Of a DNA stretch of 64,000 bases, positions 9,840 through 64,000 are shown piece after piece. Below the pieces are notes generated by a model that searched no databases, had not been told where the DNA came from, and saw nothing but the letters and a program-made list of their open reading frames with translations. Every line of letters begins with the position of its first letter. Position 1 is the first letter of the stretch. The DNA is from Chrysomallon squamiferum (lineage: Eukaryota > Animalia > Mollusca): assembly GCA_012295275.1 (NCBI GenBank), contig CM022678.1, positions 20,147,144 through 20,211,143 on the forward strand, in the 5' to 3' direction. Position numbers and translations under genes: made by a program.

Positions 9840-9927
9840 ATGTGTGTTTGGGTATATATATAAATATATATATATATGTATGTATGCATGTATGTCTGTA
9901 TGTGTATATATATAAAACTTTTTTCAG

Positions 9928-25904: not shown

Positions 25905-26687
25905 CTGAAAAATTATTAAAAATATAACAACAAAATAATAACAGTGAGAGTAATTAGATTATTATAGTTTTTATTTAATTTAAAGTGAAACGAATAGTAA
26001 TGATGATAATAATAATAATAATAATAATAAATAATAATAAATAATAATAATATATTTAATGTATAATAGCAATTAACATGGCCTGAAATAATTTTGTAAA
26101 TTCTGACACTAATTATTTTGTTTCTTAAGAGAATGTATGTTCGGTTGTTTGAATGTTGAAGGAACACAGATTTTTTTTATTTCCAAAATAATCATACTGT
26201 TGGAATTTAAAAGATTTGAGACTACTAAATTAAATATGTAATGTCACATTCCTATAAAGTGTAATTCTTTTTTTATTATTATTATTTTTAATATCATGTT
26301 TGAAAGTGTTTGTAAATGTAATTTTTGTTTTTAAATAAAAAATTAAAAAATAAATATTCATGTAAATAAATAAATCAGATAAAGCAGATTTGTAATTTCG
26401 ACAAAGTATCTGTGTTAAAACGATAAATAAGAAAATAAATAAACAAGTAAGAAAGCAAAAATAAATAAGTAAATAAAAAGAAATAAGTAAGAAAATAAAT
26501 ATACAAGTAAATAAATAAATAAATAAATAAATAAATACAATAAATAAATAAATAAATAAGCAAATAAATAACTAAAATAAATAAATAAGTAAGTAAATAA
26601 ATAAATGAAGAAAGAAATAAGCAAAACAATGAATAAACAAACTAACTAACTAAATAAATAAATAAATAAATAATATTGACACAAAAC

Positions 26688-26776
26688 CTGCTTCAGCTGC
26701 TACAGTGAGATGCATAACTGGACCCAAGTTTTTTGTTGAATCGCTGTCCTGCATCCAGCTTTTTATAGTACTGTAC
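26688..26776 (-). CDS. SLC25A32: SLC25A32 exon 3 (YSTIKSWMQDSDSTKNLGPVMHLTVAAEA)
   Basis: tttcAG…G|GTTTTG, phases 2/1 consistent. Confidence 0.9.
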
Positions 26777-28915: not shown

Positions 28916-29247
28916 TATCTGATTACTTTTGCATAATTAATTTATTTGATCAATTATTAAAGTGAACTCTATATACTTCAAAGATTTATTTGTTTTATTA
29001 TGTGATCAATTTTTTTATTTGTGTCAGTGTATCACAATAACAGAGCACTGTGCCATAATCTGTTAAGTTGTTAATAATAATAATAATAATAATAAATATA
29101 AAAATTAAAATTATTAAAAATAATGAACAACACACACTGATAAAGAAGAAGTACTTATTAAAGATAACTCAACATACACATGTATCCAAAAAAAAAAAAA
29201 TAATAATAATAAAAAAATAAAAATTAGATTTAGATATTAAAACTTAC

Positions 29248-29404
29248 AGAAAAAAATACATGCCCCATGAAATGCCTGCCCCCCACACATTGGGTGTGAC
29301 TCCTTGGTAGAGACCAACGAAGCCATCACTTTTGGCAATGCTTGTTAAAGCATGAATAAGTCCTTTGTACTGAGGTCGTTTGGTAATTCCAATCCCTTCA
29401 TTCA
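29248..29404 (-). CDS. SLC25A32: SLC25A32 exon 2 ([20 protein letters not shown]…[22 protein letters not shown])
   Basis: tttcAG…CT|GTAAG. Confidence 0.95.
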
Positions 29405-31298: not shown

Positions 31299-31455
31299 CT
31301 TGAAATCTAATTTTAACTAAATCCAGAGGATGGAGAATAAGCGTCGATACCACTCCTCCACTAATTCCGGCTAGAAGATGTTCCCATTTTATAGAACGCA
31401 ATAGCCCGTCCTTCACTGAAAGACCAGGTTTCTTTTTAATTGTGGAAGAATCCAT
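31299..31455 (-). CDS. SLC25A32: SLC25A32 exon 1 (MDSSTIKKK…[28 protein letters not shown])
   Basis: ATG at 31455, G|GTAAT donor. Confidence 0.93.
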
Positions 31456-31807
31456 TGTTGTACTGCTAGTATGTTTGTAGTCGTCAACTTATTAAACCAA
31501 ATAATCGTCTATTTGACAAAATATCTCTCATTTCAGTCATTTCTGGCAGAAAACCGCTAGGCGCTCGTAACCTATGAACACCTGACTACAGAAGGCACCA
31601 TATTGAAAAGGACTGATTATGCGATAACTGAATAAATCGTACATTAATCGAATTTTTGATATAATCGAATCAAACAACACAGTAAACCATATGAAATATT
31701 TTAGACATAAAACACACATTTTAGAAATAGTATCTCTTTACTTATTTTAGTATTTATAATTATTATATTTATCGGATGGTTGATATCCTTTAGCAGTATC
31801 AGCTGAC

Positions 31808-32722: not shown

Positions 32723-33494
32723 CCGGAATCAGAAGTGCTAAAATATGATACTTCTATATGCTTAATGTAAAGGTGTATTATAGGAGACTGTATACAATTT
32801 TGTTTTTAATATGACGAGCATTGAGAGGCTTGGTTCAGTAATATCAAATGCTGATGATTTGCAGAAAGGTAATACGTTGGTAGTTGCATGCTGTGCCGAC
32901 AGCTTATAAGGCAATACAATTGAATAAACATTTGTAGACGGCTAAGACGTAATTTATTAAAGTTCACTAGTGGTACATCATGCCTTTCATCACGCGCATA
33001 TCTGTTTGTTTTGAATAACATAATGACGAATATACAACAAAAGAGTAAAGTTTAAAGGACATATTCATTATAATATTAGTAATAAAAATTATAAAATATT
33101 TAGAAATAATGATAAACAATTGAAAACAAAAATGTCACAGGTCGATTCCTTCTCGGCACATGCTTTGAGCCATTTTCTGATCGGATGATCCTTCCTGTGC
33201 CTTCAAATAATGATAACAGAATTAAGTAGTTAAACCCCACAAATATTGAATAACTAAAATATGATCAAACCCACACCCCCAAAAAAAACCCCCAACAAAT
33301 AACTAAACAGACAAAATAAAATTAATAATAATAATAATAAAATTTTTAATTTAAAACAAAAATGGAATGAAACCCCCCAAAAATGAGAAAAAAGAAATAT
33401 TATATATTTGTCTCTTTAACGTTTTGTTCAGTTTTATACTTCAGCAAGGATTATTTCTTTATTATTATTATTATTATTATTTTATATTTTCCAG

Positions 33495-33576
33495 GAGCTC
33501 AGGTTGCTACAAGTTTGTTGCAGGAACGGGCAAACGATGTCCGAGCCAACAGAGTCAACTGGCAGTCATATCTGCA
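33495..33576 (+). CDS. ATP6V1H: ATP6V1H exon (AQVATSLLQERANDVRANRVNWQSYL)
   Basis: ccAG…CA|GTGAG. Confidence 0.9.
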
Positions 33577-33928
33577 GTGAGTTAGAATAGTGTTATAATG
33601 ATATACAGAAATATTGCCTTAGAATTAAAATACAGTCTTTTCACATTATGATTAACACCACTTTTGTCAAAATGACTAAATATCCAATAGCTGATGATAA
33701 AATATTAAACATATTTGATATCACTGAACACAATAATCTTTGAAATTTGCATAAATGAACTTTTATATACATATCTGGTGGTTGTAATGTCCAAATTCCT
33801 AGTTATCAAGGTCATTTGTGTGGACAAAAAAAAGTGGCTACACTAACATAAGGAAAATACTGGAATTAATATTTTTGTTAAGACTTTTCCATGAACAAAA
33901 TGAAACTTATAATTTAATATGTTTGCAG

Positions 33929-34028
33929 GGGACAGATGATAAACCAGGAAGTGTTTGAGTTCATTTCCAAGTTTGACAGCGGGAATGCTGATGTTCGCAC
34001 AGCCATGTTGAAGAATAACCCCAACCAG
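33929..34028 (+). CDS. ATP6V1H: ATP6V1H exon (GQMINQEVFEFISKFD…KNNPNQ)
   Basis: tgcAG…CAG|GTAAT. Confidence 0.92.
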
Positions 34029-34904
34029 GTAATACTATGTGAAACTTGTATTGTGTTTTTAATGTTTCTCTGTGTGTGTTTGTGTGTTTGTGACTATGAA
34101 TTTATGTGTACATATTTTGAGTGTATACAAGTCTATCTGTGTGTGTGCATTATCCTGAGTCTGTATGTCTGTGTATGTGTGTTACAGAAAAGATGGATTA
34201 TCAGGAAATAGGTATAATTCCTGAAAATTTCAGAAAAATGTATGTCATCAGTGAAAATAATGTGGTTTGAGTTTGTGATGGTCCGTGGAAAACCTACACA
34301 TCCACAGAGCCATGGGTCCAGTATAAAGACTTTGACATTAAGTACAGCTTATTTGTTTGTTAGCAGACAACAACAGAACTGAATGGTTTGTTTGTTAGCA
34401 GACAACAACAGAACTGAATGGTCTGTTGGATTCAAACAGCTACAGAACTGAATGGTCTGTTGGATTCAAATTTGTTCAGTTTCAGAAGAACGTCAGTCTT
34501 CACAGTGGAATTAAGGGTTCCCCATTTGCAGCACTGTTGTGTTCTGATGCTTGCATTGGCCTGTCATCTTCTAGAAATTCTCTTGAAATTCTCTACATTG
34601 ATTTCAGTGAGAGAATGATCTACTTACAGCAACTCCATTACCACTTTCCTGAGTGAATCGGGCATTATACATATTTCCTGTAATATATATATATATTATG
34701 GATATTTATGGGTGGGTTATGTGTATGAATATTTGAACATATTTGGTGCATAAATGTGAATCTGCATGTATCTGTGTGTGTGTGTGTGTGTGTGTGTGTC
34801 AGGTGTGTGAGTGCATGCTGTTTTGTTTTGTTTGCCTCTTTTTCTGTCTTAACAGACCTGAACAAAAATGTCGATCTGTCATTTCTTTTATTAATTTATT
34901 TCAG

Positions 34905-34994
34905 TTTGCTGGCACGTTCTTCACCCTGATTGGTCAGATTGCTAAAGATCAAACCCTGCAGTACATTCTTACCATGCTGGATGACGCTCTGCAG
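34905..34994 (+). CDS. ATP6V1H: ATP6V1H exon (FAGTFFTLIGQIAKDQTLQYILTMLDDALQ)
   Basis: ttcAG…GTAAA, 90 nt. Confidence 0.93.
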
Positions 34995-35221
34995 GTAAAT
35001 TGTCACAGACTGCTTTTCCACACATCACAGTTCCACACATCACAGTTCCACACTGACAGTAACAGATATCAGAAGAAAGAGAGATAGTAATGACTGTTGT
35101 GTCATAATTAGTCTGAAGATTCTCACTCAGTTATTTTTTTTTTTTTTTTTTATTTCTCTTGTAAGAATTTCTTTAATGATTTGTTGCTCTTTATGTTACA
35201 TTTATGTGAAATTGCTTGCAG

Positions 35222-35335
35222 GAAGACAAGACGAGGGTGGAGATTTTCAAGGACTTTGCTAAGAAACGCAAAGATTCTGTGTATGCCCCGTTTTTCCACT
35301 TGCTGGAGAGAGAGGACAAGTTTATTGTGTACCAG
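35222..35335 (+). CDS. ATP6V1H: ATP6V1H exon (EDKTRVEIFKDFAKKR…EDKFIVYQ)
   Basis: tgcAG…GTTAG, 114 nt. Confidence 0.93.
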
Positions 35336-35986
35336 GTTAGATTTGTGTTGGCTTGGAAGATATTTAACTTTTTATTTATTTATTTATTTAATGTGTAGGT
35401 GGGTAACATCATGTACCAAAAAAATTCTGTTTCATCTGATATTATTATTATTATTATTATTATTATTTTAAATAAAAATTTAAAAAAGTTTATTATATTA
35501 CATCTGTGGGAAATATCTGTAAGGTTGGATAAATTCCTTATCTCACTCATGTTATAAATCACTGGTCATGAATTTTTTGCGTACTTGCGTGAATGCTTGC
35601 ATGTCTGTATGTGTTATATGTGTGTGATCCTCATCACTGCTGTTTAAAATCTGTGTCAATAAATGGTATAGAAACATGCAAGATTCATAATTATTTATTA
35701 CGTAAAAATATACTACTCAGTCTTTGATGACGTTTTAAAATGTCTAAACAAAATTAAAAAATATAAACTAGTTATTATTACTTGTCTTCATACAGTATAT
35801 TATTAGCAAAGTTTTATTCTCTGTAAGAAGCAAAGAAATAATTTGGAAGTAAACGAAACCTTCGCCAGAGAGAATAGATCTAACACAGTAAATAAAAAAA
35901 ATGAAATTAGATGAAATATATTGTTGTTTGATTTGTCCTTGCACTGCAAAGATAAATAATTTTTTGTTGTTGTTTGTGTTTTGCAG

Positions 35987-36091
35987 TCGAGTCAGATAAT
36001 TAGTAAAATAGCCTGCTGGAGTAAAGAACCAATGGACAGAAAAAATCTTCACTTCTATCTCAACTGGTTGAAAGATCAGCTCAAACAACCC
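35987..36091 (+). CDS. ATP6V1H: ATP6V1H exon ([16 protein letters not shown]…[12 protein letters not shown])
   Basis: tgcAG…GTATG, 105 nt. Confidence 0.93.
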
Positions 36092-36289
36092 GTATGTTGT
36101 TTTTCTTACTTTTTTTAATAACATTTTTTTTTTTTTTTTCTTTTTTCTTTTTTTTTCTTTCTCATTATTCAGATTTTTCAAGTTAAAGAAAGTTTGGGTA
36201 GTTTTCAAAATTATGAATTTTTTTCATTTAATCTTTTTCAGAGTAATGGATATTGATATATGCTTTGTTTATGAATATTTACATAAACA

Positions 36290-36642
36290 CTTTGTTTCAG
36301 AATAACAAATACTTACATATATTCTGTTTCAAAATGATCTCTTTACATATACTACATTTTAAAATAACAAATATATATATATATGTATATATATATATAC
36401 TTTGTTTCAAAATAACAAACATTTACATGCATTTTTGATTCAGGAGAACAAAAATTTATATACACTCAGAATAATGTATATTTATACATTCTCTGTTTCA
36501 GAATAATGAATATTGACTCATAATTGGTTTCAGAATAATGAATATTTACAAATACTGTGTTTCAGAATAATATATATTTACAAATACTGTGTTTCAGAAT
36601 AATGTGTATTTACATACATTCTGTTTCAGAATAATGAATATC
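36290..36642 (+). repeat. 32-bp tandem repeat containing the acceptor tttcAG|AATAAT
   Basis: AG ends at 36501, 36533, 36565, 36597 and 36629 (true site), with degenerate copies upstream. Confidence 0.88.
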
Positions 36643-36727
36643 TTCAAACTGCTGCTCGCTGTCTTCAGATGATGCTTCGAGTAGAAATGTATCGACTGGC
36701 TTTCATGGAGGTTGAGGGCATTTCTGC
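36630..36727 (+). CDS. ATP6V1H: ATP6V1H exon ([32 protein letters not shown])
   Basis: ttcAG…GTAAG. Confidence 0.93.
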
Positions 36728-37399
36728 GTAAGCTAGTCCTTTGTGGAAAATTTCACCTGTGCTTAGAGAAAATAATTGATTATTATTTTTGTTTTTTAAT
36801 TCGTATTTATAATGTATTGTTAAAGTGCACCTATGGAGTGATGCAGAAATTATCTAAATATCTTCAGCGTCCTTTCAGGTTTTATTTTTGTTTGTTTATC
36901 TCTTAATTAGTAAATAAGTAAACAACAATAGAGTACTGTATTAAAATAGTCTCGGTACTGCTACGATTCTGTAGTCGTGACGTCATTGTGTAGGGATTTG
37001 CAGTTTGTCAGCTTTAAGTTGATACAGCTGTAAGTTTGCCATGTGTGCTGCTGTAATGACAGTTGTAAATGTTTAAAACAGTGGAAAAATATTCTGTAAC
37101 AGTATTGTTTTATTGTCATATTTATCATCATAGATCACCCCAAAAATACCAGTGAAAATAACAACATGGAAGTGTAAAGAATTTCAGGCAACCATTTATT
37201 CGCATTGGCCTCTACAGTCTAATTATGTATATAGGCTTGTTAGTTGGATACGCATTATGTGTGTCTATCCCTTATGCAAATATGTGTGTCTGATTGAGCT
37301 TGCCTGTGTGCATTTGTGGAAACAGACAGCTGAGTATGTGTGTTAAAAGTATTTTATTGAGAAATTGTGGGATGTTTATTTATGTTTAAGCATGAATAA

Positions 37400-37438
<39 letters not shown>

Positions 37439-37539
37439 AAGGAGGAGGGAAGGTGTGTGTGAGAAAGAGAGAGAGAAATGAACAGAAAACTTCAGAAATT
37501 TTAATTCTGTCAAAATGTATAAACTTATTTTTACTGCAG

Positions 37540-37650
37540 AATTGTGTCCGTGTTGGCAGGAAGTAAAGTTGGTTTTCAGATTCAGTATCAGCTGACTTTC
37601 TGTCTCTGGTGTCTTTCTTTCAACAGTGTCCTTGCAGAGAAAGTAAACAA
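37540..37650 (+). CDS. ATP6V1H: ATP6V1H exon ([36 protein letters not shown])
   Basis: tgcAG…GTAAG. Confidence 0.93.
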
Positions 37651-37808
37651 GTAAGTGAAACTGATAAGTACAGTGCACTGAACTGGGCATTAACAAGTAA
37701 GTCTAACTGATAAGTACAGTGCACTGAACTGGGCATTAACAAGTAAGTCTAACTGATAAGTACAGTGCACTGAACTGGGCATTAACAAGTAAGTCTAACT
37801 GATAAGTG
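37646..37808 (+). repeat. 46-bp tandem repeat containing the donor AACAA|GTAAGT
   Basis: copies at 37646, 37692, 37738 and 37784; degenerate continuation toward about 38650. Confidence 0.9.
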
Positions 37809-38804
37809 GAAAGTTTTCAGGAGTATGCAAAATTGAACATTAAGTAGTACGTCTAAACCTTTCTGGAATGTGCAAAACTGAATGAATAAGTGAAACTAAT
37901 AAGTTGAAAGTTTTTCATGAGTATTCAGAATAGAGTGTTAAGAAGTATGTCTGAACAGAATGTTAACAAATAAATCAAACTGATAAGTAAAAGCTTTTCT
38001 AAAGCATGCAGAACTGAACATTAACGAACGAAAACATTTCTAGGATATGTGAAACTTGAAGTTGGAAACGTTTCAGGAGTATGCAAGAATTTGGCATTAA
38101 GAAGGATGTTTAAACTTTTTTCTTAAAAAATTTGAATATTAAGAGTTATATCAAAGTGATAGGTCAAGCCTTTTCTGGAATATGCAGAAATGAAATTTGA
38201 ATAAGCAAGTCCAATTTATTTATAACAGAACTAAAGAGAAAATAAGTAGAAGCAATTTACAAATATTTAAGTTGTTAAGCATGTCACGTTTTCTAGTAAC
38301 ATATCAATTGATGTAAAACTGAATAATCAAGTTTAAACCTAGAACAGTGAGAACTGTACAGAGAATGAGTGAGTCTAAACTTATTTAGAAGTTGGCACTG
38401 AGCAAATAAATGAGTCTAAATTTGAGTATAGCAGTAATCAAGGCTCAACAATGAACAAGCAAGTCTAGGATTATTTAGAACAGTCAGCAGTGAGCAGTAA
38501 AATAATTGAGTAAACTCATCAGTTAGCACTGAGCAGTAAAATAAATAAACAAGTCTAAATCTATTTAGAACAGTCCTCAACACTGGAAAGTGAAGTTTAA
38601 ACTTATAAAGAAAGTCATAACTGTACAGAGAATATGAAAGTATAAACATTTAAAACAGCTGAAAATAAACAGCGAGTGATCAGGTGTCAATGTATTTAGG
38701 ATAGAACTGAAGAACAAATAGCCTGTTTAGAACAGAACTGAACAGTGAGTTTTTTCTGTACTTAACTGATGTACATCTGTATTGTTGCTGTGGTTTGTTT
38801 GTAG

Positions 38805-38889
38805 GTACAACATCATTCCCATACTAGCAGATATTCTTAGTGAGTCTGTGAAGGAGAAAGTAACAAGAATTATTCTGGCAACATTCAGG
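38805..38889 (+). CDS. ATP6V1H: ATP6V1H exon ([28 protein letters not shown])
   Basis: tgtAG…GTAAA. Confidence 0.94.
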
Positions 38890-39614
38890 GTAAATTGAAA
38901 TGGCACACCTTTCAAACTATTTTTATATTATTATCATTACTAATACTATTACTATTACTATTACTATTATTAGTATTAGTATTAGTATTAGTATTAGTAT
39001 TAGTATTAGTATTATTATTATTCTTATTCTTATTATTATTCTCTGTTATCCTTCAGTTCTGTATTTTATACACACTTACACAATTCTTTTTTTGCAATAC
39101 ACTGGTTAAATGTGTCATTTTGCAAACCTAAAAGTCACAAGTTAAGCATATAATGTATATATATATATATATATATATGAATATATATATTTATATATAT
39201 ATTTGTCATCCAATATCTATATTTACTCCTGTAGTGTCTTAATTCTGATATAGACCTCAAAAGACCGCTTTGAAAACAGTTTTCAATTAAAAAACAGCAA
39301 AATGAATTGTTATTTAAGGAACGATTTTGTTTTGACATTTGAATCTACTATTTATTTATTTTATTACTTTCTTTTTTTTAACCTGAAAAGACCACTTTGA
39401 AAACAGTTTTCAGTAAAAAGAAAAAACAAATAAACTGTTATTTAAGTTACTATTTCATTTTGATGTTTGAATCTACCATTTATTTATATTATTATAGTTT
39501 TATGGGTTTTTTTTTTTTTCAATTAATTAATTTATTTGCTTATCAAATTTATTTATTATTTATTCTATAAAACGTATTATTTTTTCTATATTTATTTCTT
39601 TGTGTATGTTTTAG

Positions 39615-39793
39615 AATTTGCTGGAGAAACCGGAGGAGAAGGAGTGTGTACAGGAGCACGCGTTGGCGATGGTGCAGTGCAAGGTTCTCAAGCAGCTGGA
39701 GTTGCTGGAAGGTCGAAAGTTCGACGACCCTGACATTGTCGATGACTTGAAGTTTGTTACTGAAAAGTTACTGTCCTCAGTGCAAGATCTTAG
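39615..39793 (+). CDS. ATP6V1H: ATP6V1H exon (NLLEKPEE…LLSSVQDL)
   Basis: tttAG…GTACA. Confidence 0.94.
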
Positions 39794-39803
39794 GTACATG
39801 TAT

Positions 39804-39842
<39 letters not shown>

Positions 39843-40145
39843 TTTTTTATTATTTTAATTATTTTAATTATTTTTTTATATATTTTGTTTGTATGATTTA
39901 GTTCATTGTACTGAATAATTGTGTGTGTGCGCGCATGTGTGTGTGTATTTATAGTTCATTCGTTATCATTGAAACCAAAGAAATTTATCACTTCTTTTAT
40001 CTGTTTGTTTATTTAAAATTTTGCTTTAGACAAAAGTCAGTTGTTTATAGCTGGTGAATACAGTTTTCAATTTTTATCTCTCTTTGGTTTACTTAAGAAG
40101 ATTTTTAAAAGGTCATTTTTTTAATTTAATTTTTATTTCATTCAG

Positions 40146-40271
40146 CTCATTTGATGAGTATTCTACTGAAGTGAAATCAGGCAGGTTGGAGTGGAGCCCT
40201 GTTCATAAATCTGACAGATTTTGGCGAGAAAATGCCCTTCGACTCAATGAGAAAAACTACGAATTACTCAA
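40146..40271 (+). CDS. ATP6V1H: ATP6V1H exon ([20 protein letters not shown]…NYELL)
   Basis: ttcAG…GTAGG. Confidence 0.95.
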
Positions 40272-40569
40272 GTAGGTTTTTAGTCTGCAACAAAGTAGCG
40301 TTATTGACCACTGTTATATTTTTGTCCTGTTTTTAATTTTATAAGAAAAAACAAAATGCAACATTAAATTTAAATTTAATATAATTTTACTTTCATTGAT
40401 TTGAATTTAAAATTTTTACAATTTGAACTGTTAAAGTTTTTGGTGGAGAATTTTGTTTCTTTTAAATGTTTAAACATGTGATAAATTGTTATCAAAATGT
40501 GTGGATAATCCAGTGTTTAAAATGATGTGATTATTTTTGTAAATAAATTTTGGTGTAAATCGTGTACAG

Positions 40570-40671
40570 GATTCTAGTTCGTCTGCTGGAAAGTAGCAGA
40601 GATCCACTGATTCTGTCTGTGGCTGCTCATGACATTGGTGAATATGTGCGATATTATCCAAGGGGCAAAAA
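40570..40671 (+). CDS. ATP6V1H: ATP6V1H exon ([33 protein letters not shown])
   Basis: tacAG…GTGAG. Confidence 0.95.
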
Positions 40672-41075
40672 GTGAGTAATCATGACATTGGTGAATACAT
40701 AGTATATTATCCAAGGTGTAAAAAAGTGAATAATCATGACATTGGTGAATACATAGTATATTATCCAAGGTGTAAAAAAGTGAATAATCATGACATTGGT
40801 GAATATGTTGGATATTATCCAAGTGGTAAAAAAAAGTGAGTAATTATGATGTAGGATATTATCAGAAGGGTAAAATGTGAAAACTTATAACACTGGTGAA
40901 TACATACGATATTACGCATGGGGTAAAATGTGAGTTGTTATGAAACTGATGAGTACATAAAACTATAATATTATCCATGGGTTGAAATTTCAGTAATTAT
41001 GACTTTGGTAAATATGTTGGACATTATCATTGTAAGTTGTGAAAGTGATGGTACATAAAAAAATATTATCCAGGC
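40628..41075 (+). repeat. 53-54-bp tandem repeat made of the last 44 exon nt plus the donor
   Basis: catgacattggtgaata…tattatccaag…aaaaGTGA at 40628, 40681, 40735 and 40789, then decaying copies. Confidence 0.9.
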
Positions 41076-41297
41076 ATTTCAGTAATTAAAACTGAGTAAT
41101 CAAAATATTATGAATAGATAAAATGAGTTAATCATTTTACTGTGAATAGATATGATAAGTTATTCGGTGCAATTTTTTCACATTAATATCTGATACAATT
41201 AAATATTCAGTCTGTTTTTTTTTTTTCACTGATGAGTTATTCATAATTCAGTGATGTTTTTCAGATATTAATAATGACTGATGTAGTTTTGGTTCAT

Positions 41298-41330
<33 letters not shown>

Positions 41331-41356
41331 CTAGTTTTCTTTAAATTTTCTTTCAG

Positions 41357-41470
41357 TATGATTGAACAGCTTGGAGCTAAGCAGCTGGTGATGCAGTACT
41401 TGAGTCATGAAGATCCAAATGTCCGATATGAGGCTCTCATAGCTGTTCAGAAGCTAATGGTTCATAACTG
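41357..41470 (+). CDS. ATP6V1H: ATP6V1H exon ([37 protein letters not shown])
   Basis: ttcAG…GTCAG. Confidence 0.95.
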
Positions 41471-41929
41471 GTCAGTTTGAACTCTCGTTTTTCAAGTTAC
41501 AACAGTTTTTTTCTTTTTTAATTGATTTTTTATTTTTTTTTTTTTTTGTTATTTCTTTCAATTGTTATTTGATTAATATTAATATATTTATTCATTTATT
41601 ATATATTGTACTTGACATTTTCTTCTTCTTTCATGTTATTTATTTTATTTATTTTTATGTTAATGTATTTTTTTAAATATATTATTGAATTATTAATGTT
41701 TGTAATAATGTCTTAGTTTTAATCTAGTCAGATTTGTTTAGTTATATTGACTAATTTTGATGGTTATTTATTTCTTTATTTCTTTATTGTTGTATTTTAA
41801 TAATTAATTTGTTGTAATTTGTAAAAAGGCAGTCCATTATCTCCTGATACGACAGATTGACTGTTTCTGTAATAAGTGTAGTGCTTACTTAAAAGATATT
41901 CTATTTTCTGTAAATTGATTCAAATTCAT

Positions 41930-42450
41930 GAACTGCTGTTGCATAGCAGATTGACTGAAGTCCATGAATTACTTCTGCATATAACAGAATGACTTGAGAA
42001 CATGAATAGTCTTTTTATAACAGCTTGACTCTAATCTGTAAAGAGTCAAGTCCATGAATTGTCCTTAAATAACAGAATGACTCTATTCCAAAAACAGTCA
42101 AATCCATGATCCTTCTTTTATGATAACAGATTGACTATTTTGTTTATGAGTCATGTCCATGAACTGTCCAGATATAACAGATTGAACATTCTATAAAGTC
42201 AGGTTCATGAACTGTCTTATGTAACAGTTTGACTATATTCTGTAAAGTCAGGTTTATGATATGCAACACATTGATTGACTATTTTGTAATTTATTCTCTA
42301 AAGCGTCAAGTCCATTAACTGTCCTTATATAACAGATTGACTATATTCTATAAAGTCAGGTTCGAGAACTGTCCTCATATAACAGACTGACTCTGTTTTG
42401 TAGTGAGTCAGTTCCATGATTCATTGTCCTTGAATACAAATTGACTGTGT
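41930..42450 (+). repeat. Degenerate ~50-60 bp intronic tandem repeat (taacagattgactat…agtcaagtccatgaactgtc)
   Basis: about 9 diverged copies. Confidence 0.7.
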
Positions 42451-42654
42451 AATCAACAAAACAGTGAAATCAAGTTTACGACGCTGTCCTATTTTGTCAG
42501 ATTCTCAACCAACAAAACCTGAAGGGTTAACACATTTATATTAACAGTGTTGCTCTACTGAGACTCGACTCACTGAGATCTCACACAGTGGATCTGCACT
42601 GCTCTGTATCTCCTTTGTTAAATGTTCACAGTGTTTGTTTGTTTTTAATGACAG

Positions 42655-42733
42655 GGAGTATTTGGGCAAGCAGCTCGAAGTTGGAGAGCCAGCAAAGAAG
42701 GAGATGCCAGGACTGACAGCTGCAAAAGCGTAG
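42655..42733 (+). CDS. ATP6V1H: ATP6V1H terminal exon (EYLGKQLEVGEPAKKEMPGLTAAKA*)
   Basis: gacAG acceptor, TAG stop. Confidence 0.92.
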
Positions 42734-45732: not shown

Positions 45733-48185
45733 ATAACTGGTGTGATAAAGCTACATAAAGATGATATTTATATACTACTGTGATCAGGGACACAATTCCA
45801 TTTTTGAATAGATCATGTTTTAAAATGAAATAAATATTACTGTCAAAATTCTGCTTTATTTTATTCCTTCATATTTAATTTCTAGAAAAAAAATCTCTAA
45901 TAAGAAAATGGCATTTAGCCTTTTGAAATCAACTATCACGTACTTCAGAAATGACAACATAACTCGTGATGCAGTTTTCACCAGGGGAGCATAAAAGAGG
46001 GATAGCTACCTCATGTAGCCTGAATAACATGCATACTGATTCAAAAATCGGTTAGTAGATTAAGAAAAGACGAGGAAGAAAAAAAATAAAACGTTTATTT
46101 TTTATTTTATTTTTGTAGTTACAATCGGTTTTCTTCACATCAAACAAGTCCTCACTTAAACTAAGCATTTTATCTAATTAACACTAAGGCTCGCAGTATT
46201 TATTTATTTATTTATTTATTTCGTTTTTCAGTTTAAATGCAGAACGTCTACACTTTTATTGCTAAAGAGCGAAATCACTCAGACGTATTTCTAAATGTTT
46301 CCGCTGATCGGAATATTTACCGTATTTTTCTAATTCGACTAAAATTAGTCATGAGTGCTTTCACTTTGTTTAATCACGTTCGTTATGTCACGTTTCTAAA
46401 TGTGTCTATTAATCCAGCATTCAGTTACACAAACCAAACAAGTTCATTGAATTACGTTTTTTGTTTGGTTTTTTATTATTATTTTGCTAATTCTACGAAA
46501 ATGACTAATTCGAGGTTTCAGTTTGTTTAATCGCTAAACAGGTAAATTTCATGGAAAATAATAATAGCATTAAAATATACCTCTGATTCACGAATTGTCT
46601 TTTGAGAGATAAGGGGCTATAATTAGAAGGAAGTAAAATGCACATACAGAAGCAGCACGTAAAACCAGACGTTGAATAGAAATTGAGCTTAGCTAAGAAA
46701 AGACAAGATCTCGTAAATCAACGGGAAAGAAGTTTTTCAGTCCAGTAAAATTTAGATGGTCTAAGTTTTACTTTTCTATAGGTCAGAACACTGGGAAGAA
46801 AAAGAAAGGAAAAAATAACAACACATATAATAATAATAACAAAATCCTTCATCAGTTTGATATTGCTTTCAAAATAAGAATATTGTTTTAAAAATATTAC
46901 CTTATTTGAAAACAATTCATACCAAGCTTTTACAATTTACCATCACTGAACAAGCTCATGAAAAGGAAATAAAAACAACACACTCTACACTTTTTATCAA
47001 AAACCTTTCTCTAAGCCATTCTTCACTAATAATAAGTAGAAATTACATAACCGTCTTTTATATACTATTCTTTATTAATAATAATGTAATAATTGCAGAA
47101 CCTTTCTATACCATAATTTAATAATAATAAAGTAATAACAAATTTCTTCCTCTGTAGACCATTCTTTATTAACACTAAAATATCTCATCTATGAAATCTA
47201 AATTAAGAAAAAAAAATAACAAACAAGTTCATACTAAACTTTCCATCAATATCAACACATTAACTTAAACTTCAGCTTAGGTTAAAAAAAATGTAAAACA
47301 CGTAAATCGACGGGAAAGGCTTTTGAAACCAGTAAAACTTTTATGGACAAATACAAATTATTATTATATAAAGCTGAGACAGAAATTTCCTCTTCTTTTT
47401 TATTCTGTATTTATTGAAATTTTGAAGCTGGTCATTTTGTTTCTTATTCTCTGGCGCAAGCACTACAGAGCTGTGATTCCTTAAATTTATACAAATACGG
47501 AAAGAAAACTTTATCACTTATTTATTTATTTATTTATTTGTTATTATTTATTTATTTATTTTATTTTTATTAATATTATTATCATTATTATTATTATTTC
47601 CTGCAAACCGTTTCACACAGTAGACATGATATTTCTCGATGTGTTCGTTGATCCGAATATTTGGCATATTTCTCAGTTTTTACAAGAATTAGTCATGTGT
47701 GCTTTGTCTTTGTTTAATCGCGTTCACGAAAATTAATAGTTGAATTATGTAGAAAATAAATATATAAAGTAGCTTTAAATTTTGTATTGGATATCACATT
47801 TCTGAATGGTTTGATTTACCCAGTATCTAGTTGCACAAACCAAATAACTTCGCTGAACGAACGTAAACCTTATACTTCTAATTGCACTAAATACGTTCAT
47901 TTATCCAGCATCTAGTTACACAAAACAGATAAGTTCGCTGAACGGACGCAAACCTTCTACTTCTATTACCACGAAAATTACTAACACATTGTTTCAGTGT
48001 GTTTAATCACGTTTACTAAATAACTAAATTTAGTGGAAAATACTGTTAAAGCAAAGGATTAAAAAAAAAATATCTTATTGACAAATTTTATTTAGTTTTA
48101 TTTTCTACAGATTACAACTGTGCAATAGAAAAACATCACAATAACAACAACAGTAACAACAACAACAACAATAACAACAATAACA

Positions 48186-48241
<56 letters not shown>

Positions 48242-48980
48242 CAATACTACTAATAATGTCCCTAAACAATTTGTCTGGCTTTCGAAATAATATTTTCTTT
48301 ACTATTTAAATCTGCACAGAATAATGCAGTATTACAAAGCATTTTTACACAGCTTTTACGACGATCATATCGTCTTTCTAAACGATTCGTGGAATTTAAA
48401 ACGAAAATAGAAAGAAGTCACTTATATAACACTGACAGTTAGTTTCGCAGTAAGGAACATCCAGAGAGAACGTGTAAGTTTGATTTAAAAAATATTTTTC
48501 CGATCATATACTTTATATTTAACTAAGAATTTATTCATTACTTATCCATTAAGTTATAACAATACTTCTCGAATAGTTAACTGATATAATAAGTTATATC
48601 TACAATTAAGTGCAATATACAAATACCCACGAAGCAAATAACAGAACAAATTAACTAAAAATTCAGCTTAGTTCAAAACCGTAAGAAAATGTAAATCGAT
48701 GATAAAATTTTGATAGCGTAATAAAAATTAGAATCTTTTAAAGGTAAAACAACTATTGGGTTGTCTTTCTTTTTCTCTTTTACATTTTATTTTTTTTAAA
48801 TTCTATTTTCATTTTTATGTAATTTAATTTAAAACTGTGAAGCAGGTCATTTTGTTTATTATTGTCTGGCCCAAACACTCAAATTAAAATAAATCGAGAA
48901 AGAAAACTAAGTAGAGCTGTGAGTTGTGTATAGGATAGTATTACTTCATCCTAACGACCGTGATATTCTTCTTCTTCTTC

Positions 48981-50032: not shown

Positions 50033-50462
50033 TTGCTTCAAACGGTTTCACGCAGTACACATTATATTTGTCGATGAGTTCGTTGATCTGAATATTTGGC
50101 ATATGTTTCAAATTTCACGAAGATTAGTCCTGTGTATTTTGACTTTGATCACATTCACTGAAATTAATACTAAGTTACGTAGAAAATAAATATAAACTTC
50201 GTTTTAAATTTTGTATTTGATATCACACTTGTAAATATGTTGATTCATCCAGTATCTAGTTACACAAGTCACATAAATTCGCTGAACGAACGTACACCTT
50301 ATACTTCTATTTCCACGAAAATTACTAATGCGTGGTTTTAGTTTGTTTACTCACGTTTACTAAATATCTTGGTTTAAAGTTATAATTAAAAAATACATCT
50401 TATTAATGAACTTTATTTAGTTTCATTTCTCTGGAGGTCAGAACACCGCGAAAGACAAACAG

Positions 50463-50521
<59 letters not shown>

Positions 50522-51207
50522 GAAAATAATAATAGCAATGGTAATAATAATGCCTCATGAACAGTTTTTAAATCTGGTATTCCGATCATAGACTTTATCT
50601 TTAATTAATAGTTTACTCATTACTTGTCAATTAAATCATATGTATGATTTACGAATAATTAACTGATATATAAATTATAACTACAAGGAAGTGTAATATA
50701 CAAATACCCTTAAAGCAAGAAAAACAAAAATTAAGAAAGTTTAAGAACACGTATCGACGGAAATGTTTTTTTTTTTGTTTTTGTTTTTGGAACCAATAAG
50801 AATTTTAGAACCTGATAGAAATATGGTGTTTACAAAAAAGTAACACAAAGATTTCCTTGTTCATTTTTATTTATTTATTTATTTTTTATTTATTATTTTC
50901 TATTATCTATTTATTATTAATTCAATTATTGTTATTATTATTAAAATTATTATTATTATTATTAGTAGTAGTAGTATTATTATTGTTTGCTGTAAAGGGT
51001 TTTCACGCAGTAGATGTGTTCGTTGATCGTAATAGTTATCACTCTTCACAAAATAATATTTAAGTTAGCATTAAAGTACGTATCTGGTTAATAAATTGCA
51101 TTTTGATCTGTAACACTGTAAGGAAGTATAATAAACAAACACATAAAAAGCGAACAACACAAGACGTAAAATAAAATTCAACTTTGCTAAGAAAAGACAA
51201 TATGTTA

Positions 51208-51292
<85 letters not shown>

Positions 51293-51691
51293 ATCAATAT
51301 ATATATATAAAACAAGAAATAATAATAATAATAAATAGAAATAAAATTAGGAAGGCCTTGAGATCAGACTGATCTCGATATTCACATAAATAATTTTTTT
51401 ATAGATATTATGTAATTAAATTTTAATATTTAAAGCTACACACATTCTGTCAAAAGAACTCAGTATTTTATTGTAATAGTAACTTAATAATAAAATGAAC
51501 TAATAAAGTGTAAAGCACGTAGATATAATAAGGAGTCTTGGTCACGAATGTATTTATATTGTTGTCATGTCGCAAGTTCATAATATTACCTTATTAGGTG
51601 ACATCCCTTATATAGCTTTCTCATTGACTATATAGTTTTATTGTATCGACTTCTAGAATTTCAATAAGGAAACTAGACACCTGATTACATA

Positions 51692-51774
51692 TATATAAAA
51701 CTGAAAAGGTAAAGCTATCCCAGTCTTTAACTGTTCGTTTGAGAGTAAGGAAGAACCAGCGAGAACGTGTAAGT
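51692..51774 (+). promoter_or_regulatory. Putative TATA box and non-coding first exon (donor GTAAGT at 51769) of TPR-TIR copy 1
   Basis: TATATAAAA at 51692; the motif gtaaggaa…gagaa.gtGTAAGTttgatttaa is conserved at 48450-48490 and 61050-61090. Confidence 0.45.
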
Positions 51775-51824
51775 TTGATTTAAGTTTTGTTATTACGATC
51801 AGGTACTGGATATTTAAGTAATAT

Positions 51825-52016
51825 TTTATTCATTACTTGTGCATTAAAATATAACATTCTTTCATTACTTGTGCATTAAAATATAAAATTCATTCATTAC
51901 TTGTGCATTAAAATATAACATTCATTCATTACTTGTGCATTAAAATATAAAAGTCATTCATTACTTGTGCATTGCAGTATCAAATTCATTCATTACTTGT
52001 GCATTAAAATATAAAA
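51825..52016 (+). repeat. 32-bp minisatellite (ttcattacttgtgcattaaaatataacattca) x6
   Basis: direct reading; a single unit is present in the paralogous region near 61135. Confidence 0.88.
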
Positions 52017-52451
52017 TATGTAAATTATAACTACCACGAAATGGAATACACAAACAGACAAGTAGCAGATAACACAACACATTAAGTCAAATTTCATCTT
52101 AGTTCAGAAATAAAAGGATCACATAAATCGATGCGAATGTTTACTGAAACCAGAAGGATTTTGATGCCCTAAATAAAATTAAGATTTACAGAAGCCTGAG
52201 AGAAAAATATTTTTATTATTAATATTATTATTTTATTATTTTATTTTTATACATTTAAAACGTAGACGCAGGTGATTTCGTTGATTATTCTCTGAAGCAA
52301 ACAAGAAACGTGTGCTCCTGTAAAAAGAAAAAAAGAAAATTCCTGCTAAAACTGTTTAATAAATATTTCTTATACCTTACGGGTGTCTTTACTCGCTATA
52401 GTTATTTAGTTTCATTTCTCTGAAGATCAGAACCCTGCGAAGGAAAAACAG

Positions 52452-52676: not shown

Positions 52677-52740
52677 ATGGCTGCGAAAACAGAGCAAAAC
52701 ACAACGACATTAGAGAAAGATTTTGGAAGGATCAACATTG
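52677..52740 (+). CDS. TPR-TIR copy 1, short first coding exon (MAAKTEQNTTTLEKDFGRINI)
   Basis: tttAG at 52672, ATG at 52677, G|GTGAGA donor; phase 1 joins 53146; a homologous exon precedes copy 3. Confidence 0.8.
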
Positions 52741-52901
52741 GTGAGAAATACCAGTTACAATGATAGTGAAATATTTGTATTATGTTGCATGACACCTTCA
52801 GCTGACACTCTTCTGCTTATCTTAATAAATACAACATTCTCTCACAGATATCCAAACTGAAATCTACATAAAAAGCACATACACACAGATACATTTATAT
52901 A

Positions 52902-52902
<1 letters not shown>

Positions 52903-52985
<83 letters not shown>
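52903..52985. repeat. (AG)n microsatellite in the intron of TPR-TIR copy 1; also at the same position in copy 2 (56816-56909) and copy 3 (63124-63238)
   Basis: direct reading. Confidence 0.9.
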
Positions 52986-53145
52986 GCAGAAAACATAACA
53001 TTTTCTGATTACTTCTCATTAATTTAAAAAAAGAAAACAAAAGAAAAACAAAAATGAAAAATTTACACTACATATTTTAATGAACGGATTCTTTTCGATC
53101 CGTATTTCTTCACCAAATTCGAATTACTTACATTTTATTTTTCAG

Positions 53146-55265
53146 CTACAGATGAGGACATTTCCTTCGAAAAGAGATTGGAATCGTTTCCTCACTCCTT
53201 TCATCTTACAGATCTCATGTTCTGCTCAAAACAGCTTAGAGAAAAATTACTTGAAAAGTTTCAAGGAAAACCGAAAGAAGAGAAATCGGGTGACATGGAA
53301 GAATGTGAAAATGAAAAGAGAAGTTACAATCGCACCAACAATTTTGTCTCCTTCCTGCTGTTTGTGCTAGGAGATCGAGACAAGGCAATCGAGATAAATT
53401 TGAAAGTCTGTCGTCGAGACCCTACTAACATTGTAGCTCGTGCAAACCGTGTGCGATTTCTGTTAAAACAGGATAAGCATTCTGCTGAATCAGAATTAAT
53501 TGAACTGGAAAACGTGAACGGAGACCTGGACAGAATGCGTGCTGTAGCTGAAGCTGAACTTGCCTATTGCTACTCTGAACTAACACCAGCTTCTTATCCA
53601 AAGGCTCTGAAACTGTACAGAAAATTAAATGAGAATTATACTGAAGAATACGAGTGGAAATTTGGTGAGGGTCTAACTCTTAGACGATTTCTGTCCCCTC
53701 AGAGCTATTCAATTCAGTCAGGTATCGATGTGGTAGAATACGCTGTTAGATGCTATGAACTGCTAGACGAAGTCGGCAGGCAAGGACCTGAACCTCTGAA
53801 TGCGATGGCGTACGCAGAGCTTTTGGAATTAGCCAAGCGGCTTGAATCAAAAACAAGACCATTTGAAGAGGAACATGTTGTGGAAAGAATTAAGCAACAA
53901 ACAAATCTGCAGTCGTGTGAGAAATATTTCCAGACAGCTCTTGAATTAGACAACAACAGCAGTTTCGTACTGAAAAGGTTAGGCAAATATTTACTAAATG
54001 AAAATCAACTGGATGAGGCTGAGACAATGTTAGAACAGTCAGTCAGTCGTAATCCGACAGGAAAAGATTTCCATCACCTGGGAAAGGTTCTGCTGAAAAA
54101 AGAGAGAAAACAAAACAACAGCGAAACACTTAAGCGTGCGATTGAAAATCTAAAACTGGCCGTTGAAATGTCACACGGGGAAAATTACCCTGCAGCGCTT
54201 GACTTGGCTTCTGCTTACCTGAGAAGAAACCGCTTCGATGATGCCGAAAAGGTCTTAAAAGATATCATAGAAAGAGCTGAAAGTGATACCAATCAGTTCT
54301 GTTATATTAATGCTTTGAAAATGAAGAGTAGAATCTGTTGTGAGAAAAATTGGAGACTGAGTGAAGAGACATTAAACTACAAAATTCTTGCTATAGAAGC
54401 TTCTGCCTCAGAAGTGCTGTACAAATATCGCACTCATTTTAGAACGGTGACAGATTTGCTGAACCAAAAGGATGGTCCACGTGGGGTAAAAATACCGTGG
54501 GAAGTTAAAGAAGTTTACTGTATGATCAGTGAGTTCGCCCGATCTCTTCCGATTTATGAGAAGATTCAAAACCGTAATCTGGGATCACAAGACTGGATTG
54601 CAATTACAGAGGAATACCTCAATCGACAAGAATACGAAAATACTAGACTGTGTGTAAGTCTGCTGATGGGTACGCAACAAGCTGATTATATTCCTTTTCC
54701 TCTCGTCAGTCGAATTTATCTGAAAACAGCAGAGCACATGTTATCAAGAGGCCTGTCACCGAGTAAAGTTTCGCGATGTTTCAGAAGGATTTTTACGTTA
54801 TACTACAAAACGAAGAAAGAAGATGAAATAAATGGTGCTGATATCATGATTATCCATGACAAAGACGATTGTAACTCGTCTGAGATTTCAGTGAAGATTC
54901 AGAAAATTCTGGAAGACTATACAGGTCTTGAAGTCACGAGGAATGATGAACTTGCCTTTGAAGGAATGGATGATATCTCTTTTTATGAACAACTGATGCC
55001 TCTTATTCGCTGCATTGTTGTAGTTGTTAATTCGGATACCCCAAACACACACTGGAAACAGGTGATTGATTTGGCAATAGCAACTGCTACGAAAAATGAG
55101 AAGATGATGATTGTATGCTTGAAATCAGGAGAGACTCACCAAGTCACTGAACTCAATGATTTCAAAACAGGAAAAACTCCACCAGACGAAGCAGACGACA
55201 AAGCTGCTGTGGACTGGCTGCTGGAAACTTTTCCACTTCTTGTTAATGCTGACGTCAATTTGTAA
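53146..55265 (+). CDS. IFIT/TTC22-like tetratricopeptide-repeat protein with C-terminal TIR-like domain, copy 1 main exon (about 727 aa spliced)
   Basis: 2.1-kb open exon; TPR patterns (…LKRLGKYLLNENQLDEAETMLEQSV, …LASAYLRRNRFDDAEKVL); N-terminal LESFPHSFHL recalls TTC22/IFIT; C-terminal alternating beta/alpha pattern starting DIMIIHDKDD. Confidence 0.8.
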
Positions 55266-57098: not shown

Positions 57099-57730
57099 CA
57101 ACAGATGAGCACATTTTATTGTAAAATAGGTTGGAATCATTTCCTCACTTCCTTCTTCGTATATATTTCACGTTCTGGTAAAAACAGCATAGAGAAAAAT
57201 TACTTGCAAAGTTTCAAGAAAACCGAAAGAAGAGAAATCGGGCGAGATGGAAAAATATGAAAATAAAAAAACAAGCAACGATCGAGACAGGGTAATCGCG
57301 ATAAATTTGAAAGTCTGACGTTGAGACCTACAAACGTTGTAGCTCATGGAAACCGTGTGCGTTTTCTGCAGAAAGAGAACGACCGTTCTGCTGAATCAGA
57401 ATTAATCGAACTGGAAAACCCGGAGGGAGACCTCGACAGAATGCGTGCTGTAGCTGAAGCTGAACTTGCCTATTGCTATTCTGAACTAACACCAGCTTCT
57501 TATCCAAAGGCTCTCGAGCTGCACAGAAAAGTAAATGAAAAATATCCAGAAGAACACTACTGAAAATTTGAAGAAGGTCTAACAGTTAGACGATCTCTGT
57601 CCCTTCAAAGCTATTCGTTTCAGTCACGTACCGATATCGCTGAAATCGCTGTTAGATGCTAAGAACTGCTAGACGGAGTCGGCAGTAAGGGCCAGAACCA
57701 TTAAATACCATCGCTTATTCCGGGCTTGGG
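57099..57730 (+). pseudogene. TPR-TIR copy 2, truncated pseudogene
   Basis: homologous to 53146-53825; frameshifts, an internal deletion, stops (TGA at 57561, TAA near 57660), 3' truncated, first coding exon missing. Confidence 0.88.
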
Positions 57731-57929
57731 TCATTCTTACGTAATTTTATATCATATCATTTAACTGAGCGACAGTGATTGGCAGAAACTGCAGCACTAA
57801 CATTTAGTAAAAAGAATAAATAAATATTAATAATAATATAATAAAATAAAATAAATACACAAGCAAACAAACAAAAACAAAAAATCAAAAACAAAAAACA
57901 AACAAAAAAAATCAGTTAGGTGATCGTAG

Positions 57930-62895: not shown

Positions 62896-62962
62896 ATGAC
62901 TGCGAGAAAAGAGCAAAGTACAACATCGATAGATACGGATTTTGCCAGGATAAATATTGGTA
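62896..62962 (+). CDS. TPR-TIR copy 3, first coding exon (MTARKEQSTTSIDTDFARINI[G])
   Basis: homologous to 52677-52740; tandem donors at 62960 and 62963, both phase 1. Confidence 0.78.
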
Positions 62963-63119
62963 GTGAGAAATATTAATCAGGATCCGTATTATGTAGAATT
63001 ACACGTTGATGTTACATTACTCTGATTACTTTTATAAACACGTTATTCTCTCTTTCACATATATCTACATCGAGATATCTGCTTAAAAATACTAGCAAAC
63101 AACCACACACACACATAAT

Positions 63120-63240
<121 letters not shown>

Positions 63241-63394
63241 CGGTAAAAACAATATATTATCATTGCTCATCGTGAGTTTAATAAAGAAAAAAAATGAAAA
63301 AATAAAGAAATCGAAATTATATTTTTAGAAAAGACTTTTACTTCAGAAAATTCACGTCACTTAATTTTATCTTATTATTATTTTTTTTTTTCAG

Positions 63395-64000
63395 GTGCGG
63401 ATGAGGATATCGCCTTCGAAAAGAGACTACAATCATTTCCTCACTCCTTTCATCTCACAGATCTCATGTTCTACACGAAACAGCGCAGAGAAGAACTGCT
63501 TAGAAAGTTAGAACAACGGGAAGAAGACATACCTACTTCAGTGGGAAATCAACCAAGTCAAAAGACACACACAAATCGTCACGACAATTTTTCTTCGTTC
63601 TTGCTTTTTTTGCTAGGAGATCGAGAGAAGGCAATCGAGATAAATTTAAAAGTCCGTGATCGCGACCCTACTAACATTGTAGCACGGGCAAATCGTGTGC
63701 GATTTCTGATAAAACAGGATAGGCGTTCTCCTGAGTCAGAATTAGAGGAATTGGAAAACTTGGAGGGAGACCTGGACAGAATGCGTACTGTAGCTGAAGC
63801 TGAACTTGCTTATTGCTACACTCGACTATCACCAGCTTCTTATCCAAAGGCTCTAAAGCTGTACAGAACATTAAATGAGAAATATCCAGACGAATTCGAG
63901 TGGAAATATCGAGAGGGTCTCACACTTAGACGATCTCTGTCCTTTCAGAGCTATTCAATTCAGTCAGGTATCGATGTGGTTGAATACGCTGTTGAATGCT
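63395..64000 (+). CDS. TPR-TIR copy 3, main exon, open to the window end
   Basis: ttcAG acceptor; ADEDIAFEKRLQSFPHSFHLTDLMF…GIDVVEYAVEC without stops; paralogous to copy 1. Confidence 0.88.

Follow-up and report, generated by a model that had tools for sequence, protein, structure and literature searches.

The gene at 52677..55265 (+) encodes a 727-aa protein in which a TPR solenoid homologous to IFIT is followed, in the same frame, by a domain predicted to fold as a TIR domain. This IFIT-TIR fusion is a family found across gastropods, bivalves, hemichordates, and amphioxus, and the family is widespread and apparently undescribed, joining known parts in a new combination. The window analysed is a 64,000-nt stretch of the Chrysomallon squamiferum genome (assembly GCA_012295275.1, CM022678.1, positions 20,147,144-20,211,143, forward strand), and all positions are relative to this window.

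Structure and transcription of the IFIT-TIR gene

The gene, hereafter copy 1, has two coding exons and a single terminal stop. Coding exon 1 (52677..52740, +) begins with the ATG at 52677, comprises 64 nt (21 codons plus 1 nt), and is immediately followed by a GT donor. The 405-nt intron (52741..53145, +) is a phase 1 GT..AG intron containing an (AG)n tract, and coding exon 2 (53146..55265, +, stop codon included) encodes solenoid and TIR in a single frame. With a GC of 0.20-0.34, the window is AT-rich, and 53058-55265 is its sole long ORF. The exon 2 product was designated P0001, and full-length numbering equals P0001 numbering + 22.

Five public runs (one organism, two studies) match part of the window, including three RNA runs (X1-X3) and one run whose kind is unrecorded (X5). 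Transcription was assessed from RNA contigs, which carry neither level nor strand. One X3 RNA contig omits exactly the intron 52741-53145. The intron bins 52756-53069 had zero depth in the three RNA runs; X5 showed depth in the first bin. X1 and X2 contigs stop at the acceptor of copy 1, and their loose ends resemble exon 1 of the third copy described below. As RNA contigs of X1, X2, and X3 (with 1, 1, and 19 other letters, respectively) span the TPR/TIR border (54670 to beyond 54920), the fusion in copy 1 is not an assembly join. Copy 1 is a real, spliced, and transcribed gene. The frame, the GT..AG intron, and the X3 contig agree with the initial annotation of this DNA, which had described a spliced protein of about 727 aa with a tiny first coding exon and one large exon, and all motifs quoted there were found in the translation of copy 1.

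Conservation suggests a non-coding exon upstream of copy 1. The candidate first exon, a block at 51690..51775 (+) that combines a TATA-like stretch with a GT donor, recurs near 48.4 kb as well as upstream of the third copy. No splice joint of this block was found in the run contigs, and X3 and X5 contigs continue upstream across the putative acceptor of copy 1. An exact GAAANNGAAA (the ISRE consensus) was absent between 48776 and 53306; across the window, the ISRE pattern matched 19 times where 6.3 matches were expected, for the most part in A-rich tracts and never upstream of copy 1. A 32-bp tandem repeat (5.9 copies, 90% matches) occupies 51828-52017, and one unit of it also lies upstream of the third copy.

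Distribution of the IFIT-TIR family

Relatives were taken from the best 150 of 685 matches obtained at E ≤ 0.001 by phmmer against 1.84 billion representatives, and the family was defined as the 118 of 154 proteins matching the family-specific N-terminal 240 aa, copy 1 and its paralogue included. Thirty relatives were looked up and gave 22 named clusters (12 gastropod, 6 bivalve, 2 hemichordate, and 2 amphioxus), and the nearest named relatives among the matches listed were three Gigantopelta aegis proteins. A strict TIR profile detected a TIR in 84 of the 118 listed relatives (two only partly), all four named deuterostome proteins included; of the 34 listed relatives in which it detected none, 27 are <650 aa and may be fragments. 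A looser C-terminal profile (89/118) extended into the helices preceding the TIR, and the stricter one was used instead. A survey of the architecture across Mollusca had been proposed in the initial annotation; the fusion proved to be mollusc-wide, and to reach beyond molluscs, with IFIT RNA-contact residues kept at the family level.

Pfam TIR_2 was among the five best families in one of 53 full-length members scanned and matched 8 of 25 isolated family C-termini (E up to 1). Since the TIR of most members escapes Pfam, these proteins are left as uncharacterised by annotation pipelines. The Atlas gave three clusters: two from molluscs (0.98), with 62 and 85 members, and one from echinoderms (0.97), in which TIR_2 occurs in 91% of 54. 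Word-index protein searches returned 3, 2, and 27 matches, among which only P0002 and P0006 belong to the family. Copy 1 grouped with P0009 and the Gigantopelta proteins in a FastTree tree, which is silent on the order of events because it is unrooted and contains no IFIT rows.

Two members have unusual lengths. P0010 (Batillaria, 1941 aa) gave TIR-like matches at 626-798 and near 1788-1887 and appears to contain more than one IFIT-TIR unit, either as a tandem fusion or as a merged gene model. P0002 (Gigantopelta, 499 aa) is TIR-less and of IFIT length, representing natural TIR loss or a truncated gene model; the contigs given for P0002 and for two paralogues with a TIR all measure 47,477,099 bases.

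Homology of the solenoid to IFIT

Pfam detected TPRs only in copy 1 and nothing in its C-terminal 153 aa. Alignment A3 was made from 111 of the 118 relatives, leaving out the seven longest, and its profile was compared with PDB sequences. An engineered TPR ranked first, followed by IFIT1 (1.7e-34) and IFIT5 (2.6e-32); lower matches included IFIT2 (2.4e-16) and IFIT3 (9.4e-14), and the best unrelated natural protein was OGT (8.5e-18). The match was colinear over IFIT1 residues 4-183 and 228-471, with the IFIT N-terminus included. A 22-row profile again had IFIT1 and IFIT5 leading the natural proteins, though more narrowly (IFIT1 1.4e-25, OGT 1e-20), and reproduced the K151 register used below. 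As single-sequence and 3-row searches of PDB sequences returned generic TPRs only and did not find IFIT, the IFIT signal requires a deep profile.

The AlphaFold2 model built with A3 (pLDDT 89.6, pTM 0.89) gave IFIT5 and IFIT1 at ranks 1-6 in Foldseek, with TM to target of ~0.6 and E-values near that of OGT, and IFIT1 and IFIT5 at ranks 1-12 in VIA (Z 20.4-22.6, rmsd 3.6-6.3), where BBS4 and OGT came next at 15.8. In a representative-only fold search, the IFIT chains listed were a half-length IFIT1 and IFIT2; at 13.5 and 12.7, they fell short of BBS4 (15.8). Model residues 1-554 aligned to IFIT5 3-481. The IFIT-like solenoid of the initial annotation is thereby upheld by two profiles, Foldseek, and VIA, all of which place IFIT1 and IFIT5 first among natural proteins, and the solenoid (53148..54809, +; residues 23-576) is homologous to IFIT, with an identity in copy 1 of only 12-15%. 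TRIF's N-terminal domain was not among the best 50-60 matches listed in the profile and fold searches, which excludes nothing. The solenoid of copy 1 has a pI of 6.4 and is not basic overall.

Predicted TIR fold of the C-terminus

The TIR of copy 1 was seen only through Atlas features, folds, and the family profile. The model predicts that residues 584-723 (54831..55250, +) fold as a TIR domain; the TIR-like region of the initial annotation began at 54837, which is codon 586. The five strands at P0001 566-676 in the full model matched solved TIRs, in support of the TIR claimed at the C-terminus: IL-1RAcPb (Z 13.6, rmsd 2.7 over 136 residues), IL-18Rbeta (13.3), SARM1 (12.3), MyD88 (12.2), oyster TIR-STING (12.0), and TRIF (11.8). 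A profile of 25 family C-termini gave weak matches to IL-1RAcP, TIR-STING, MyD88, and TLRs (E 0.005-0.02), and 30 of its 34 matches were TIR-bearing by name, though all TIR matches were weak, at E 0.005 or worse. The fold predicted from the C-terminus as a single sequence was weak (pLDDT 52.9); its top five matches were TIRs, with flavoproteins tied at Z 8.3, and TRAM scored Z 8.4.

The resemblance to TRIF/TRAM in particular, on which the initial annotation had laid weight, was not supported. TRIF scored below the IL-1R-family TIRs (11.8 vs 13.6 and 13.3), TRIF and TRAM were not among the 34 profile matches, and pLxIS and RHIM were not found in copy 1, in which the disordered linker is also missing and helices extend right up to the TIR. 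In these comparisons, the TIR of copy 1 appears no closer to TRIF/TRAM than it is to the remaining TIRs. Two PxExx[acidic] TRAF6-like motifs in copy 1 lie within folded regions and were not counted.

The catalytic position was set by alignments with MyD88 and TIR-STING and by the W-C-x-x-E pattern. At the three candidate positions for the catalytic glutamate, copy 1 has Val661, Ile662, and Asp663, and Glu occurs in none of the 84 TIR-bearing listed relatives at the first two columns and in 19-21 of 84 at the third. The available part of a preprint on catalytic TIRs across animals, one mollusc included, describes this glutamate as essential (bioRxiv 10.64898/2026.04.20.719644). In the BB loop, copy 1 has Glu627 at the proline position (Pro in 33/84 listed relatives) followed by Gly628 (Gly in 51/84). 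The proline is needed for TRAM filaments according to the available text of PMC11745336.

Conservation of IFIT RNA-contact residues

The RNA contacts of IFITs given in the accessible parts of PMC13197388 and PMC3950709 include K151, R187, K259, R262, and K296 (= IFIT5 R294), among which K151 is described as needed for binding. They were mapped by hand through the alignment of the A3 profile with IFIT1; the register of R187, which lies 4 residues beyond the end of the aligned part, was extrapolated, and for K257, R260, and R294 the offset from IFIT5 to IFIT1 was inferred. Among 453 well-filled IFIT-aligned columns of the 111-row alignment, eight are at least 75% K/R, and five of these eight most conserved basic columns correspond to K151 (90%), R187 (95%), K259 (76%), R262 (82%), and K296/R294 (88%). 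This overlap has p ~2e-5 against ~59 hand-counted K/R positions of IFIT1. Four or five of the five conserved basic contacts are retained in 85 of 100 gap-free rows, and P0009 and amphioxus P0139 are relatives that retain all five. Since the family was gathered without any IFIT, this conservation was not selected for. Five of the seven listed IFIT contacts are thus at least 75% K/R in the family, the others being R38 (49% basic) and R255 (8%); the cap-binding loop (L46, T48) is not conserved. With five of the eight top basic columns falling on RNA contacts of IFITs, binding of RNA 5′ ends by the family is likely.

Copy 1 departs from the family at these positions. Its residues at the K151, R187, K259, R262, and K296 sites are E, R, K, L, and K, so that three of five are kept, and it has Lys at the R38 and R255 sites. 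Glu166 (53577..53579, +) occupies the K151 site, at which 100 of the 111 rows have Arg or Lys and only copy 1 is acidic, while Arg202 (53685..53687, +) occupies the R187 site, the column in which basic residues are best conserved across the family. The Glu166 codon is present in X1 and X3 contigs (single other letter), a Lys codon in an X2 contig, and Arg in paralogous contigs. As the run contigs carry Glu, Lys, or Arg, Glu166 is real and the K151 site is variable within the species.

Tandem copies and genomic surroundings

The window contains two further copies downstream of copy 1. The second copy (57101..57824, +) is a truncated pseudogene with a frameshift near 57280, stops from 57561 on, and no TIR; it shares the Glu at the K151 site with the adjoining copy 1. 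The third copy (62896..64000, +), with exon 1 from 62896 and exon 2 from 63395, is open to the window edge and has Arg at the K151 site. It is 72% identical to copy 1 over 201 aa. Over 201 codons, dN/dS between the two comes to 0.58, and to 0.42 when the variable loop is excluded. Matching contigs numbered 66-77 per RNA run and 976 in X5, and the many at 90-95% identity indicate further paralogues. These tandem copies and the pseudogene, together with the numerous related contigs, are consistent with a birth-and-death family of immune receptors whose ligand pocket is varied.

Pieces at 47253-47386, 48435-48561, and 50413-50551 are 72-89% like the upstream region of copy 1 and are probably relics of an earlier duplication. 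Farther upstream, a multi-exon mitochondrial carrier gene (24093-31488, -), with Pfam Mito_carr in four exons and, we presume, resembling the folate/FAD carrier SLC25A32, lies head to head with exons of V-ATPase subunit H (33371-42730, +; Pfam V-ATPase_H_N in three). These upstream neighbours have no immune link. Exon-like ORFs at 2611-2766, 9118-9381, and 9864-10175 (+) encode coiled-coil/low-complexity protein with no Pfam match above the cut-off.

Possible function and alternative explanations

The joint reading that we favour, with little more than even confidence, is that an IFIT solenoid and a non-catalytic TIR make the family a one-piece cytosolic receptor for RNA ends, with a shifted or weakened ligand preference in copy 1. 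The family solenoid would grip foreign RNA by its 5′ end, in the manner of IFIT1 and IFIT5, and binding would be coupled to exposure or clustering of the TIR. The attached non-catalytic TIR could then nucleate TIR-TIR signalling and recruit TIR adaptors, with NF-kB/IRF output and an antiviral role downstream. In copy 1 itself, the ligand preference is likely shifted or weakened. Several observations count against this reading: copy 1 keeps three of five contacts with the charge reversed at the K151 site; the family conserves neither R38 and R255 nor the cap loop, and the copy 1 solenoid is not basic overall; the BB-loop proline of copy 1 is replaced by Glu and no strict ISRE core lies upstream; and half-length IFIT1 and IFIT2 ranked below BBS4 in the representative-only search, at identities of 12-15%.

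A changed ligand or a decoy role for copy 1 is a serious possibility. In the fuller form of the latter, the family senses RNA, and copy 1 is a non-sensing decoy, dampener, or relaxed paralogue occupying partners while neither binding RNA nor nucleating filaments, which we regard as rather unlikely. In favour of such a role, copy 1 is alone among 111 rows in its acidic K151 site, has Leu in place of R262, and carries Glu where the BB-loop proline would stand; the adjoining pseudogene shares the K151-site Glu, and dN/dS measured on the third copy is 0.58 (0.42 once the variable loop is removed). That ratio is nevertheless below 1, and the frame of 727 codons is unbroken and, with its Glu codon, spliced and transcribed; the R187, K259, and K296 equivalents are kept, Lys stands at the R255 and R38 sites, and the BB-loop proline is a family minority, so its loss in copy 1 is not special.

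A TRIF-like adaptor, whose solenoid binds proteins or holds the TIR inactive and which acts downstream of Toll-like receptors without RNA, is suggested by TRIF itself, which joins an IFIT-like N-terminal domain, thought to be autoinhibitory, to a TIR (available text of PMC5397763), by the proposal of other TIR proteins for this role in molluscs, which have no TRIF/TRAM (parts of PMC4346834 and PMC9334734), and by the pTM of 0.89, which suggests a fixed solenoid-TIR geometry. We hold it to be improbable, as the RNA-contact columns are the family's most conserved basic columns, the solenoid is a whole IFIT rather than a 153-aa piece, pLxIS, RHIM, and a disordered linker are missing, and the TIR of copy 1 does not appear nearest to TRIF/TRAM. 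Slightly less probable still is an IFIT-type effector that sequesters viral RNA ends and blocks translation, with the TIR serving only oligomerisation or localisation. Vertebrate IFITs act in this way (available parts of PMC13197388 and PMC3950709), and 34 of the 118 listed relatives had no TIR at the threshold used; 27 of these 34, however, are <650 aa and may be fragments, and members ranging from snails to amphioxus retain the TIR, in which beta-A and the BB-loop glycine are conserved. An enzymatic reading, in which the TIR cleaves NAD+ once the solenoid activates it, as many animal TIRs outside the TLRs do, is highly improbable. Although catalytic TIRs occur across animals including a mollusc (accessible part of bioRxiv 10.64898/2026.04.20.719644), and HMMER put the oyster TIR-STING glutamate at the next column, where 19-21 of 84 listed relatives have Glu, copy 1 has Val, Ile, and Asp at the candidate positions, none of the 84 relatives has Glu at the first two, and the same preprint calls this glutamate essential.

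Evolutionary implications

In the available part of PMC3688568, IFITs are confined to jawed vertebrates, invertebrate BLAST candidates being rejected, and their origin is placed with interferon in jawed vertebrates; PMC13030082 describes them as conserved across vertebrates. A family of protostomes and deuterostomes with the IFIT fold, RNA-contact residues, and a TIR moves the origin of IFIT to early bilaterians and suggests that IFITs began as sensors and not as effectors. IFIT-type sensing would predate interferon if RNA-end detection and direct signalling, both likely, hold. The family is also a candidate for cap/5′-end sensing in molluscs, in which TICAMs (TRIF/TRAM) are absent and other TIR proteins have been proposed as substitutes (available text of PMC4346834 and PMC9334734).

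A broader reading, which we put forward tentatively and with somewhat less than even confidence, is that IFIT-TIR proteins are bilaterian-wide receptors for the 5′ ends of non-self RNA, of which vertebrate IFITs are TIR-less descendants and TRIF a possible remnant, and whose pocket molluscs vary. Such receptors would signal through their own TIR and form a class so far unrecognised; interferon would later have taken over the TIR-less vertebrate IFITs as effectors, and the IFIT-like domain and TIR of TRIF may derive from the same ancestor. Molluscs would have expanded the family and come to vary the pocket between copies, the K151 site of this species being an example in that it can be Glu, Lys, or Arg.

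Our literature search, with most subscription papers outside its reach, found no paper on an invertebrate IFIT-TIR protein, and the available parts of PMC7075850, PMC6723221, PMC7848083, PMC6697025, and bioRxiv 10.1101/2025.07.21.665930 contain nothing on the family. An unnamed TPR protein is up 2.7-fold in OsHV-1-infected oysters in the accessible text of PMC7848083, with no tie to the IFIT-TIR family possible.

Comparison with known systems

IFIT1 and IFIT5 (5udl, 5w5h, 6c6k, 4hor, 3zgq) share with the family a colinear TPR solenoid over the whole IFIT length and basic residues at the K151, R187, K259, R262, and K296 sites, and IFIT genes share with copy 1 a tandem cluster and a small exon followed by a large exon. 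The exon layout proposed as IFIT-like in the initial annotation stands only in this order of sizes, since exon 1 of copy 1 has 21 codons plus 1 nt and a phase 1 intron, whereas IFIT exon 1 consists of ATG plus 2 nt (available part of PMC3688568). Unlike IFIT, the family has a C-terminal TIR, is invertebrate, shows 12-15% identity, and conserves neither the cap loop nor R255; copy 1 further differs in Glu at K151, Leu at R262, and the lack of a strict ISRE found upstream. Copy 1 is outside strict IFIT membership because of its extra domain and different exon 1.

TRIF, with an IFIT-like N-terminal helical domain thought to autoinhibit its TIR (available text of PMC5397763), resembles copy 1 in combining these domains in one protein, and the TIR folds match. 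In contrast to TRIF/TRAM, copy 1 has a full IFIT solenoid directly abutting the TIR, with no linker, pLxIS, or RHIM, and it is outside TICAM membership because these linker motifs are missing. An oyster TIR-TPR class, which appears in a figure legend of PMC4346834 and as an abbreviation in PMC9334734, is like copy 1 in being mollusc TPR plus TIR, in architecture only, and may well include the IFIT-TIR family; in the parts of these papers available it is a counted category with no IFIT link, mechanism, or test.

The TIRs of IL-1RAcPb (7fcc), IL-18Rbeta (7fch), MyD88 (7beq), and TIR-STING (6wt7) share the five-stranded fold with copy 1 at Z 12-13.6, and scaffold TIRs share with the family a D-V-x-P-G-type BB loop, present in the family consensus, and gave the best profile matches. 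Copy 1 differs from scaffold TIRs in that its TIR is fused to an IFIT-like solenoid, is Pfam-divergent, and has Glu for the BB-loop Pro, and from oyster TIR-STING in having no catalytic Glu. We assume that many invertebrate TIR proteins are annotated under a PANTHER family that takes its name from TTC22, and the IFIT-TIR family may carry that label. In its mode of action, copy 1 most likely resembles an IFIT coupled to a scaffold TIR.
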